From assembly GCF_003790525.1 (NCBI RefSeq), contig NZ_CP033635.1: a stretch of 64,000 bases of DNA; one strand, written 5' to 3'. The notes beneath the pieces are model-generated. The model was not told where the DNA came from and searched no databases. It saw only the letters and a list, made by a program, of their open reading frames with translations. Shown piece by piece: positions 17,852 through 19,979 of this stretch (the stretch's first letter is position 1; each line of letters begins with the position of its first letter). The DNA is from Escherichia coli. Its GTDB lineage: Bacteria > Pseudomonadota > Gammaproteobacteria > Enterobacterales > Enterobacteriaceae. A program made the translations under genes and the position numbers.

Positions 17852-17892
17852 TGACTCTGGTACGGATGGTCGGGTATCGGCCATCCGTTATG

Positions 17893-18552
17893 TCATGCGG
17901 TCATCCAGTTTTTTAGAATATTCGCCACCACGGGAGCGAAAGGTGCCAGATAACCGTCGACGGGGGTGAGTAATTCGTCGATAACCGCTTGCAGCAGGTC
18001 GTCATCCTCAAGCCCCTCTGAAGGGTCAATGCCATTAGCCCACAGAAGGCTGTCGGAAAGCTGCTTACGTTTTTCAATCAATGCCCGATTATTACGTTCA
18101 CTATCGCCAAGGTTGAGTACCTTAATCGCATCGATAGCTCTCGGCGTCGTCCCTTCAATTCGACCACTGATCTTGAAGATAAACTCGGTTTCACATTCCG
18201 GCATAAGCGGCGTTAACAGCAATGGCTGGTTCTTATGCGAGTCGTCACACTGGCCTTTTGTTTTGCAGCTTGCAACGATATTCGTGAATTCCAGACTGCG
18301 AGCAGGAGCTAAATCCCTGGCTTCGACATGTTCATTAACGGTATCGCGGTTTGTACCTGTCACGCGATCGCAGCAATAAGCACAGAGATAAAATTGCTCC
18401 TGAGCGCACTGCTGGCTGAGATCGCCAACGATATCCCATTTTTTTTGCGCATAAAGTTCCTGAAACCACTGATTGGCATTTTTATCCCGTGGTTTTGCTC
18501 TCACCCACTGTTGCAAACTGGCCGGCGGTTGCCCTTTAGTTATTTCGCGCAT
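17893..18552 (-). CDS. HNH-motif endonuclease-like protein, candidate Septu PtuB-type effector
   Basis: 219-aa ORF with Cys pair C57/C60-C61, N73-E74-H75, then C96/C102 and H106 (Cys pair - N..H - Cys pair - H, as in HNH zinc nucleases); start overlaps upstream ATPase gene by 17 nt; absent from this position in K-12 as recalled. Confidence 0.75.
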   Translation of the reverse strand: MREITKGQPPASLQQWVRAKPRDKNANQWFQELYAQKKWDIVGDLSQQCAQEQFYLCAYCCDRVTGTNRDTVNEHVEARDLAPARSLEFTNIVASCKTKGQCDDSHKNQPLLLTPLMPECETEFIFKISGRIEGTTPRAIDAIKVLNLGDSERNNRALIEKRKQLSDSLLWANGIDPSEGLEDDDLLQAVIDELLTPVDGYLAPFAPVVANILKNWMTA

Positions 18553-19894
18553 GTTTAATTTCCTGTTTGCGCAGAAGCATTCTGGCTTTCACCAGTTCAA
18601 GATGGTTTTCAGGAAGTTCCAGGCTTAGCGTATTCAGAAGAGCGTTAGCGTTGATAAAGTCGTTTTTCTGAATCAGATCCAAAAGATCGTTAAGTTTTTC
18701 TGCCACTGTCGCATTGCGAATATCCGTATCCATCACATTCAAAAGCACAGTATTCGCATCTTGCCCATACAGAGACGGGAGCTGCGTTAATTCGCCATTA
18801 TCCAGAGAATAAACCAGCACATCTTTGTAATCACTGATCACTAAAGGAGAGTGGGTTGTTAAGACAAACTGGCAATGTGGGAATGTTGTCGTCAGACGCT
18901 GGATGATTGTACGCTGCCATGTTGGATGCAGGTGCATGTCCACTTCATCAATTAATACAATTCCCTCGCCGTTTAGCGGGTTTTCTAACATCGGGTTCAT
19001 CATTGCCAGGCGGCGAGCAATATCGCCGACTAACGCCATCAGTGATTTTTCACCCTGCGATAATTGCAGCACATTCAGTGTCTGGCCATTTTTATCAATC
19101 GACATATGCAGGCGAGGTTTACGCCTGACGCGTAAGTTGCTGAACCCTGGCATAAAGCGACTAATGGCCGTTCTGACGGCGGTCAACTGGCGATCCCGGG
19201 ACGAGGCCATGATTGCCGTTAATGCATTTAAGACGGTGTTATCGAGATCTATCCTGGTACTGAGCTTATCCAGAACGTCTTGGGGTAAGCCCGATTCATT
19301 TTCTGCATCTTCGCGATTGCGAAACCACTCAAAGAAACGGCGGAAATCAATACCCTGATTCAGGGCGTTATCGTAGCCATCCAGTTGCAAAAAATTATGA
19401 CGTTCTTTTATTTTCAACGGCACATCCAGCACGACACGTTCTACGGGATAGAAGGCGATAAGCGGGAAGGATGCCCCGCTATTCTGGGTGTATTGATCTC
19501 GATAAAACGCAGCCAATTGGCTGGCCTCTTGCAGGCTGGAGGCGGTGGTCGATTTTTTCCCACTGGCCGTTCTGGCAAGCAACCAACGGTAGGGCGTAGC
19601 GGCCTCCGTCGCTGGATGCGTATTCAGTACCTGAAGTTCAATTGTCGCCGAACTCCTACCGTTCAGAATAGCGTCTTCAGGAATAGGGCTACCGTTACCT
19701 TTTTCAGTACGAACTCGGGCAACGAACCAACTCAGGCTGGTTGCCAACGATTTTAATATTGATGTTTTACCTGCACCATTATTACCAATAAAAACGGTCA
19801 CATTGCTCTTGAACTCCTCCACTGGAGCCAGATGAACTTCAAGTTCTTCAAACCGCCCCAGATTAGTGAGCTTAAGCGTGCGGATATTCATCAT
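18536..19894 (-). CDS. ABC/SMC-type (AAA_15/21-like) ATPase, candidate Septu PtuA-type
   Basis: 452-aa ORF with Walker A GNNGAGKTS (res 37-45), signature-like LSQGEKS (~278-284), Walker B IVLIDEVD (~312-319) and H-loop TTHSP (~346-350); non-ATPase insert between Walker A and signature. Confidence 0.8.
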   Translation of the reverse strand: MMNIRTLKLTNLGRFEELEVHLAPVEEFKSNVTVFIGNNGAGKTSILKSLATSLSWFVARVRTEKGNGSPIPEDAILNGRSSATIELQVLNTHPATEAATPYRWLLARTASGKKSTTASSLQEASQLAAFYRDQYTQNSGASFPLIAFYPVERVVLDVPLKIKERHNFLQLDGYDNALNQGIDFRRFFEWFRNREDAENESGLPQDVLDKLSTRIDLDNTVLNALTAIMASSRDRQLTAVRTAISRFMPGFSNLRVRRKPRLHMSIDKNGQTLNVLQLSQGEKSLMALVGDIARRLAMMNPMLENPLNGEGIVLIDEVDMHLHPTWQRTIIQRLTTTFPHCQFVLTTHSPLVISDYKDVLVYSLDNGELTQLPSLYGQDANTVLLNVMDTDIRNATVAEKLNDLLDLIQKNDFINANALLNTLSLELPENHLELVKARMLLRKQEIKHARNN

Positions 19895-19979
19895 TGAGTG
19901 CCCTGCGTTGAGTTCTGTTTGGATAATCTTACACTTAACCGTCGACGTCTGTCAGTGAAAGCGTATGCCCGTCATGATG

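Follow-up and report, generated by a model that had tools for sequence, protein, structure and literature searches.

What are the two genes that separate yfcO from smrB in this Escherichia coli chromosome, and what might they do for the cell that carries them? In the window (the whole 64,000-nucleotide stretch that was analysed) yfcO and smrB lie 2,128 bp apart, the inter-gene segment running from 17852 to 19979 between the end of the yfcO homologue (17851) and that of smrB (19980). According to the open reading frame listing this gap holds two overlapping genes on the minus strand (Table 1), at exactly the positions and with exactly the lengths that an earlier, sequence-only reading of the same DNA had given for them. 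That reading had also described the pair as an insertion relative to K-12, and this was borne out, since in MG1655 smrB ends at 2449157 and yfcO at 2449228, with 70 bp and no gene between them, and no part of the insert aligns to K-12. The RefSeq genome of strain 165, which matches window positions 635-50000 at 99.998% (positions 1-634 were unmatched), carries the same two coding sequences between the StfH/YfcO fimbrial adhesin and smrB, annotated as an "AAA family ATPase" and a "hypothetical protein". The 3' end of smrB is unusually diverged from K-12, nucleotide identity being 89-91.5% over the 400 nt that adjoin the insert and 95-98% at a greater distance, and the yfcO-family gene has only ~65% nucleotide identity to its K-12 counterpart. 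The GC content of the insert (44-50%) is slightly below that of the flanks (~51-58%), a difference too mild to be discriminating.

Table 1. Features of the segment between the yfcO homologue and smrB and of its two borders (window coordinates).
Feature	Position	Strand	Description	Evidence
ptuA	18536..19894	-	452 aa, ATG start	ORF listing, PADLOC, Pfam, PDB relatives
ptuB	17893..18552	-	219 aa, ATG start	ORF listing, PADLOC, orthologue profile
ptuA end/ptuB start overlap	18536..18552	-	17 nt	coordinates and sequence
smrB-ptuA spacer	19895..19979	-	85 nt	promoter scan, folding
Hairpin	17862..17888	.	11-bp stem, between the stop codons of the convergent genes yfcO and ptuB	inverted repeat I8
smrB (yfcN)	19980..20531	-	core gene bounding the insert upstream, co-directional with ptuA	annotation
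yfcO-family fimbrial adhesin gene	17012..17851	+	other boundary of the insert, convergent with ptuB	annotation

Both products belong to Septu, a type of system known since 2018, and PADLOC Septu models were the top full-length matches for the two of them, in agreement with the PtuA/PtuB assignment first made from motifs. The larger protein matches PtuA1 (PDLC00271, E=1.8e-168) over residues 2-450, which cover positions 1-420 of the 421 in the model. Its Pfam domains are AAA_21, AAA_23, SMC_N and AAA_15, and the catalytic motifs are intact: a Walker A at G37-T44 (with K43), a Walker B at I312-E317 (with D316/E317), the D-loop histidine H321 and a TTHS motif at 346-349. The best relatives in the PDB were all PtuA chains, the closest being the PtuA of retrons Ec83 and Ec78 (E=5e-63 to ~1e-46), with the PtuA of E. 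coli ATCC 25922 at E=3.5e-32. Weak matches to AriA (E ~1e-7) and to an OLD-family protein (E=2e-4), the "AbiEii" label of AAA_21 and N-terminal matches to RecF and Rad50 could suggest some other ABC-ATPase system (PARIS with AriAB, Gabija or OLD, for instance), a toxin-antitoxin pair of the AbiEii type or a repair pair resembling RecF/SMC. These matches cover the P-loop and signature regions only and fall 25 to 160 orders of magnitude below those to PtuA, no Toprim domain was found in either protein with Pfam or NCBIfam, and the partner gene encodes a PtuB HNH protein, leaving a practically negligible chance for any such identity. The suspicion that 452 aa is short for a PtuA, and the suggestion of a divergent or unclassified variant, turned out to be mistaken: relatives at 64-75% identity measure 442-465 aa, the solved stand-alone PtuA has 465 aa, and the window protein belongs to a large, well-populated clade of ~450-aa PtuA sequences.

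The smaller protein matches PtuB1 (PDLC00344, E=5e-95) over residues 1-218 and the NCBIfam PtuB model at E=1.8e-26, under its equivalog cut-off. Pfam gave no match even at E<=10, and a single-sequence phmmer search of the PDB found nothing up to E=0.01 and, up to E=10, no more than marginal matches to PtuB. A profile built from five orthologues was more informative; below E=0.01 it retrieved PtuB chains only (9e8z_E at 1.2e-5, 9n69_F at 1.9e-4 and 8ee7_C at 5.4e-3). K6, H75, N91 and H106, as well as the cysteines C57, C60, C96 and C102, are invariant in the five orthologues compared. K43 of PtuA and H75 and H106 of PtuB, the residues named beforehand, are thus all in place. The two genes are adjacent and co-directional, ptuA then ptuB, which is the gene order of Septu type I. 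They are taken to form one operon and are probably translationally coupled.

The retron relatives deserve closer attention, as the PtuAB effectors of type I-A retrons (Retron-Eco7/Ec78 and Ec83) include the closest solved sequences to the window PtuA. Together with the retron-Ec78 PtuA and PtuB families being the top NCBIfam matches, and with scores for the two PADLOC models of retron I-A (ATPase and HNH), this could be read as the trace of an Ec78/Ec83-like retron whose reverse transcriptase and ncRNA have disappeared, the effectors being left as orphans. However, both NCBIfam equivalog cut-offs were missed (NF041760 for PtuA, 352 against 500 bits; NF041761 for PtuB, 93.3 against 150 bits), as expected for a non-retron Septu. 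A type I-A retron has a reverse transcriptase, an ncRNA and msDNA, and the window locus has none of the three. There is no reverse transcriptase in the open reading frame list or in the annotation, the pair is flanked by the yfcO adhesin gene and smrB, and only 85 nt are available upstream of ptuA; Rfam gave no match at E<=1 in 17400-20800, and a scan of the whole window at gathering thresholds returned one tRNA only. The statement that no retron parts adjoin the pair therefore stands. Along the same lines, the window PtuA lacks the N-terminal extension of retron PtuA (~60-66 aa), which contacts the reverse transcriptase and the ncRNA (PMC12819146), as well as internal insertions of ~30 aa (452 against 542-552 aa), its residues 4-448 aligning to ~67-540 of Ec78-type PtuA and its residues from 11 onward to those from 70 onward of Ec83 PtuA. 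The four cassettes examined from other genera, at 69-75% identity, are also devoid of reverse transcriptase. Finally, toxicity would be expected of orphan effectors, whereas the allele EcB88 described below is tolerated and active only on infection (PMC13096335). Descent from a broken retron seems to us highly improbable.

The island had been taken as a new candidate system, and this it is not. It was catalogued in 2023 as the "yfcO-yfcN" Septu island of E. coli ECONIH1 (Hochhauser et al. 2023, PMC10121019, supplementary table), with the same flanking genes, a length of 2,129 bp (2,128 bp in the window), the system call Septu and the mobile-element type "None"; it is a catalogue entry only, outside the 41 hotspots of that paper. 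It was then characterised functionally in 2026 as Septu EcB88 of E. coli JBBDAGI-19-0041 (PtuA WP_000981116.1, PtuB WP_016243072.1; Nat Commun 2026, PMC13096335). EcB88 occupies the same site, directly downstream of smrB, with equal gene lengths (452 and 219 aa) and an equal ptuA/ptuB overlap, and its cloned fragment starts inside the 3' end of smrB, at the equivalent of window position 20190. Over the 399 residues of PtuA that could be compared cleanly, which leave out the last 53, four differ (T220A, I228L, Y356C and N366D; 99.0% identity), and one of the 219 residues of PtuB (V198I; 99.5%). None of these substitutions falls in a catalytic motif, and we take the window locus to be an allele of Septu EcB88, ~99% identical to it.

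The published allele blocks Demerecviridae (T5-like phages) as well as T4 and T6, and its defence is abolished by each of the substitutions K43A and D316A in PtuA and H75A and N91A in PtuB (PMC13096335). The four residues are conserved in the window proteins. K43A and H75A, two of the mutants suggested as controls for the window pair, thus already exist in this same-locus allele, where they abolish defence. A second study of an E. coli Septu I mutated residues with the same numbers (K43, D316/E317 and H321 in PtuA; K6 and H75 in PtuB). During infection only, EcB88 leads to cleavage of tRNA-Tyr in the variable loop, at C48/A49, as seen by sequencing of fragments formed in vivo, and T6 is rescued by overexpression or amplification of tRNA-Tyr (PMC13096335). 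Taken together, these comparisons make it very probable that the insert is a stand-alone type I Septu, an allele of EcB88, in a 2.1-kb cassette without mobile-element genes and with the mechanism of EcB88. For the window system, the defence phenotype, its dependence on the ATPase and HNH residues and the cleavage of tRNA-Tyr in vivo would follow from the literature on an allele ~99% identical.

The distribution of the locus, for which the sequence-only reading had called, was surveyed in 5,426 complete E. coli genomes and proved to be patchy. Any trace of it was found in 658. The ptuA/ptuB junction is intact in 136 of these and is crossed by a 187-bp deletion in 47, while in 475 nothing is left but a 234-bp remnant of ptuB; in IAI39 ptuA is split. 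The Septu locus is decaying across E. coli, and activity is not to be assumed from presence, because only 136 of the 658 trace-bearing genomes keep the junction. Beyond the species, ptuA followed by an overlapping ptuB of 216-219 aa is also found in cassettes of Sodalis, Klebsiella, Aeromonas and Chrysiogenes, two of the four being inside type I restriction-modification operons and one beside CBASS genes. Plasmids yielded no close copy, the best matches (Aeromonas, Enterobacter and Paraburkholderia) being 67-70% identical. How the cassette arrived is harder to read. Its ends have neither a target-site duplication nor terminal inverted repeats, and the only notable repeat, a 12-nt exact match (TAACCGTCGACG) found in ptuB and in the smrB-ptuA spacer, coincides with none of the deletion endpoints seen and is roughly as expected by chance. 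In the junction alignment the short spacers of K-12, of the remnant strains and of the window are unrelated to one another, and each contains a separate hairpin, which puts the first insertion of the cassette beyond reconstruction.

Given this decay, the intact reading frames of the source strain could be a relic, unexpressed or non-functional and on the way to the deletions of other lineages. A promoter-like site (CTGACA-18 nt-TAAGAT, 19955..19926, with the predicted -10 at 19931-19926) was located by consensus pattern matching ~30 nt upstream of the ptuA ATG. It matches 9 of the 12 consensus positions, in a scan that found two sites where 4.0 were expected by chance, which would suit a relic. 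However, EcB88 was cloned with 300-bp flanks and defended "from the native promoter" (PMC13096335), and the upstream DNA that drives this clone is identical to that of the window at 395 of 399 nt, both hexamers (-35 and -10) being free of mismatches; a single base is different immediately downstream of the -10-like hexamer. With both frames at full length, all catalytic residues present and the identity to an active allele already given, we consider a dead locus very unlikely. The window allele is probably active, bearing in mind that EcB88 differs from it by five or more substitutions. As to the other signals, smrB and ptuA lie on one strand with no terminator between them, the spacer having no terminator-like structure and a fold no more stable than its shuffles (z=+0.78). 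The hairpin beyond ptuB folds at -23.4 kcal/mol on the plus strand and at -16.4 kcal/mol on the minus strand (z ~-3.7 and -3.6, with none of 200 shuffles as stable). It has no clear U-tract and was not flagged by the terminator scan, and is a probable bidirectional terminator.

A working model of the window system can be drawn from EcB88. Transcription of the ptuA-ptuB operon would begin at a promoter within the 85-nt spacer or a short way upstream of it, possibly with some read-through from smrB. PtuA (the ABC/SMC-type ATPase) and PtuB (the HNH nuclease) would assemble into a complex that is inactive in uninfected cells; the exact promoter and the oligomeric state of the window system are both putative. 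Infection by a T5-like or T-even phage would activate the PtuAB complex, and the host tRNA-Tyr, together with that of the phage where there is one, would be cut in the variable loop, PtuB itself being the presumed enzyme. Translation would then stall, the infected cell would stop growing and the phage yield would fall. Phages that provide additional tRNA-Tyr, or a version of it that resists cleavage, might escape.

A different primary activity has been described within the same family. E. coli ATCC 25922 has a stand-alone Septu of solved structure (PDB 8EE4/8EE7; Li et al. 2024, as cited in PMC12819146 and PMC13096335). It likewise consists of a PtuA ATPase and a PtuB HNH protein with no retron, its PtuA is of comparable length (465 aa) and it defends against T5, but it is distant from the window system (PtuA E=3.5e-32; PtuB profile E=0.005) and sits at a different locus. 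According to the summary in PMC12819146, in vitro it nicks DNA as an inflammasome-like oligomer, with an activity that falls as ATP rises; for the EcB88 clade, by contrast, the connection is with cleavage of tRNA-Tyr. The window system might therefore act primarily by nicking or cleaving DNA under ATP control, the loss of tRNA-Tyr being indirect. DNA nicking in vitro is also described for released Ec78 PtuAB, and other factors may provide the connection with tRNA cleavage (PMC12819146); the passages of the EcB88 article available to us describe no in vitro cleavage of tRNA by PtuAB and do not identify the phage trigger (PMC13096335). Against this stand the single, infection-dependent cut at C48/A49 and the rescue of phage by tRNA-Tyr supply, as well as the sequence of the window PtuA, nearer to the PtuAs of the tRNA-Tyr-targeting type I-A retrons than to the DNA-nicking one of ATCC 25922. 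We regard DNA as the primary target as unlikely and favor cleavage of tRNA-Tyr.

The position of the cassette next to smrB invites another idea. Depletion of tRNA-Tyr should stall ribosomes and make them collide, and SmrB cleaves mRNA at collided ribosomes, so the adjacency of smrB and ptuA could be functional, with the two co-transcribed and SmrB and Septu jointly shutting down translation in infected cells. We rate this as a long shot. Membership of SmrB in the system was rejected as the main reading, as SmrB has no PADLOC match and the homologous cassettes of the four other genera never adjoin smrB; our literature search found nothing relevant on Septu together with smrB. As a weaker alternative, the repeated erosion of the islet (remnants in 522 of the 658 carriers) might reflect a fitness cost peculiar to this chromosomal context.

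The system is an ordinary one, already known and characterised, and matters little as a discovery; the motif-based call made from the DNA letters proved accurate. For the biology of the source strain, the locus makes resistance to T5-like phages and to some of the T-even phages probable, judging from the closely related allele, a trait that bears on host range in phage therapy. For the species, the locus shows a single defence cassette, outside any mobile element, in a clean series of natural states (intact, internally deleted, reduced to a 234-bp remnant, and absent), and this series could be used to study the loss of defence genes.

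The two genes between the yfcO homologue and smrB (yfcN) form a stand-alone type I Septu system of the canonical kind. Their products match the PADLOC models of this family over their full length, in agreement with the sequence-only reading, which had named Septu from motifs: PtuA the PtuA1 model (PDLC00271, E=1.8e-168, residues 2-450 on 420 of 421 model positions) and PtuB the PtuB1 model (PDLC00344, E=5e-95), end to end. Pfam families of the ABC/SMC-type ATPases (AAA_21, AAA_23, SMC_N and AAA_15) were found in PtuA, and a Pfam search of PtuB gave no match. All strong matches of PtuA in the PDB were PtuA chains, from retron Ec83 (the closest, E=5e-63), retron Ec78 and other type I-A retrons (E about 1e-46 to 1e-47) and the stand-alone Septu of ATCC 25922 (8EE4, E=3.5e-32). 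The same search placed AriA and an OLD-family protein no better than E=1e-7, and they were discarded as relatives. PtuB as a single sequence had no significant PDB match; a profile built from PtuB with four orthologues retrieved, below E=0.01, PtuB chains only (9e8z_E, 1.2e-5; 9n69_F, 1.9e-4; 8ee7_C, 5.4e-3). The catalytic residues are present in PtuA (Walker A K43, Walker B D316/E317, H321) and in PtuB (K6, H75, N91 and H106, plus cysteines C57, C60, C96 and C102), the latter set being invariant in 5/5 orthologues. The suspicion that PtuA is rather short did not hold: the relatives listed at 64-75% identity (more than 3,200 relatives were found at E<=1e-30) measure 442-465 aa, the solved stand-alone PtuA has 465 aa, and only the retron-linked proteins reach about 540-550 aa.

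Positions of the features discussed (window coordinates unless another locus is named)
Feature	Position	Strand	Size	Source
ptuA ORF	18536-19894	-	452 aa	ORF listing
ptuB ORF	17893-18552	-	219 aa	ORF listing
Insert	17852-19979		2,128 bp	
Chaperone-usher yfc operon	11409-17851			
3' end of smrB, possible recombination tract	19980-20380		400 nt	
Deletion at the ptuA/ptuB junction	18516-18702		187 bp	
ptuB 3'-end remnant	17884-18117		234 bp	
Decay locus L002	4001-4233			
Decay locus L003	3001-4898			
Direct repeat copies	17951-17971; 19936-19956		21 nt	
Sigma-70-like match	19955..19926			consensus scan
Hairpin, probable terminator	17862-17888			
Integrase gene, 3' part	1-634			
tRNA-Arg argW	639-710	-		
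Hypothetical protein	2946-4193	-	415 aa	
Klebsiella quasipneumoniae cassette and neighbouring genes (locus L007)	3185-13386			
Aeromonas schubertii cassette and neighbouring genes (locus L008)	1-7966			

The best NCBIfam matches were the retron-Ec78 equivalogs, both under their curated cut-offs (PtuA 352 bits against 500; PtuB 93 bits against 150). A retron module was rejected. As had been proposed from the sequence, no reverse transcriptase (RT) ORF lies near the pair in the ORF listing or the annotation, and Rfam gave no match between 17400 and 20800 at E<=1; at gathering thresholds the entire window contained one tRNA only. Moreover, PtuA starts at a point aligned to residues 67-70 of retron PtuA, so it does not have the N-terminal extension that binds the RT and the ncRNA in the retron structure (PMC12819146).

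The ORF listing returned exactly the two minus-strand genes that the sequence-only reading had delineated, overlapping by 17 nt and taking up the whole gap between the stop codons of the yfcO-family fimbrial adhesin (17851) and smrB (19980). In K-12 MG1655 smrB and yfcO are convergent neighbours separated by a gene-free gap of 70 bp, and no part of the insert aligns to this region; the insertion relative to K-12, also anticipated, is therefore real. Between window positions 635 and 50000 (the end of the stretch compared), E. coli strain 165 is 99.998% identical, and it has ptuA and ptuB at the same positions, labelled in RefSeq 'AAA family ATPase' (WP_000981121.1) and 'hypothetical protein' (WP_001206999.1). 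The first 634 nt, where strain 165 differs and which were matched in only 19/5,426 complete genomes, carry the 3' portion of a gene for a tyrosine integrase, abutting argW, and are the edge of an integrated element extending past the left end of the window. Also in the window, a hypothetical protein without NCBIfam or PADLOC match is encoded between mlaA and fadL, an interval that we take to be the yfdF position of K-12.

The system is already known. A 2026 paper (PMC13096335) describes Septu EcB88 of E. coli JBBDAGI-19-0041, and its supplementary table gives the cloned DNA and proteins. The clone begins within the 3' end of smrB and maps from window position 20190 downward (with 4 mismatches over the available 399 nt), so both cassettes share one locus. 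Among the 399 stored residues of EcB88 PtuA (WP_000981116.1, 452 aa) there are 4 substitutions (T220A, I228L, Y356C and N366D, window residue first), and its PtuB (WP_016243072.1, 219 aa) has 1 in 219 (V198I). By sequence, the window system is thus an allele of an experimentally characterised one. The locus also figures in a 2023 catalogue of E. coli defence islands (PMC10121019) as a 'yfcO-yfcN' island (2,129 bp, MGE type 'None', Septu) outside its 41 hotspots. An earlier study of synergy between an E. coli 'Septu I' and tmn mutated K43, D316/E317 and H321, and K6 and H75 of PtuB; the residue numbers are identical to those in the window proteins.

Under its native promoter with 300-bp flanks, EcB88 is reported to give E. 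coli DH10B protection, chiefly from Demerecviridae (T5-like), strong for T4 and intermediate for T6; this protection is abolished by PtuA K43A or D316A and by PtuB H75A or N91A (PMC13096335). Cleavage of host tRNA-Tyr, at C48/A49 in the variable loop, is confined to infected cells, and T6 evades the system when SegB drives amplification of the tRNA-Tyr gene that the phage itself carries; a tail-sheath mutation was common to 2/4 escapers and did not turn out to be the trigger (PMC13096335). The passages of that paper dealing with 'in vitro' or 'directly cleave' contain no PtuAB-tRNA cleavage assay. The main rival mechanism takes ATP-regulated DNA nicking as the primary activity; such nicking has been reported for the Septu of ATCC 25922, a distant relative, and, in vitro, for released Ec78 PtuAB (PMC12819146). 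We consider this rival unlikely here. By homology to EcB88, the PtuA-PtuB complex would be silent before infection, which would set off an activity dependent on the ATPase and HNH residues and, through it, loss of tRNA-Tyr; translation arrest would then stop the growth of the infected cell and lower the phage yield.

The overlap of the two genes suggests a single transcript with coupled translation. The 85-nt spacer between smrB and ptuA has no stable predicted fold (z=+0.78) and contains a sigma-70-like match (CTGACA-18-TAAGAT) from a consensus scan whose sites were no more than expected by chance; this match lies inside the fragment sufficient for expression in the EcB88 clone. Since smrB runs in the same direction and lacks a terminator at its end, its transcripts may read through into ptuA. 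At the other end, the stable hairpin between the convergent yfcO and ptuB ends is probably a bidirectional terminator. We also observed a direct repeat (81% identical, with an exact 12-nt core, TAACCGTCGACG), of which one copy lies within ptuB and the second overlaps the promoter-like site 5' of ptuA; it is about at chance level and matches none of the observed deletion endpoints.

Cassettes with PtuA 69-75% identical were found in Sodalis, Klebsiella quasipneumoniae, Aeromonas schubertii and Chrysiogenes arsenatis, all four with an overlapping ptuB of 216-219 aa and none with an RT or adjoining smrB, so smrB seems to be a neighbour by chance of where the cassette inserted in E. coli. Two of the four are inside type I restriction-modification operons, that of K. 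quasipneumoniae between hsdS and hsdR (with Cap15, a CD-NTase (CBASS) and an integrase nearby) and that of A. schubertii immediately 3' of hsdS. The annotation shows neither an integrase nor a transposase at the E. coli insert, repeat searches found no target-site duplication or terminal repeats there, and the short spacers are unrelated among K-12, the remnant strains and the window strain. The yfc genes are a highly divergent fimbrial allele set, 65-74% identical to K-12 at the nucleotide level against 95-96% for the flanks; their usher gene is intact and its K-12 counterpart (yfcU) a pseudogene. The 3' end of smrB is 89-91.5% identical to K-12 and a remnant-bearing strain and 98.9% to IAI39, and identity to K-12 farther from the insert is 95-98%; this stretch looks like a recombination tract travelling with the cassette. 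Both diverged regions fit homologous recombination of flanking DNA as the way in which the cassette has moved from lineage to lineage.

A search of 5,426 complete E. coli genomes matched the insert in part or whole in 658, always chromosomal and in single copy. At least 80% of it is held by 183 of these, with the ptuA/ptuB junction intact in 136; the other 47, including IAI39 (where ptuA is also split), share a deletion that takes out the last part of ptuA and the first part of ptuB. The remaining 475 keep only the unannotated ptuB remnant, with smrB 48 bp off. Hence, judged by the junction, apparently intact copies are limited to about 2.5% of the complete genomes, and deletion has often been the route of loss. 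Junction-intact copies, the 187-bp deletion and the 234-bp remnant make up a graded decay series of one defence locus.
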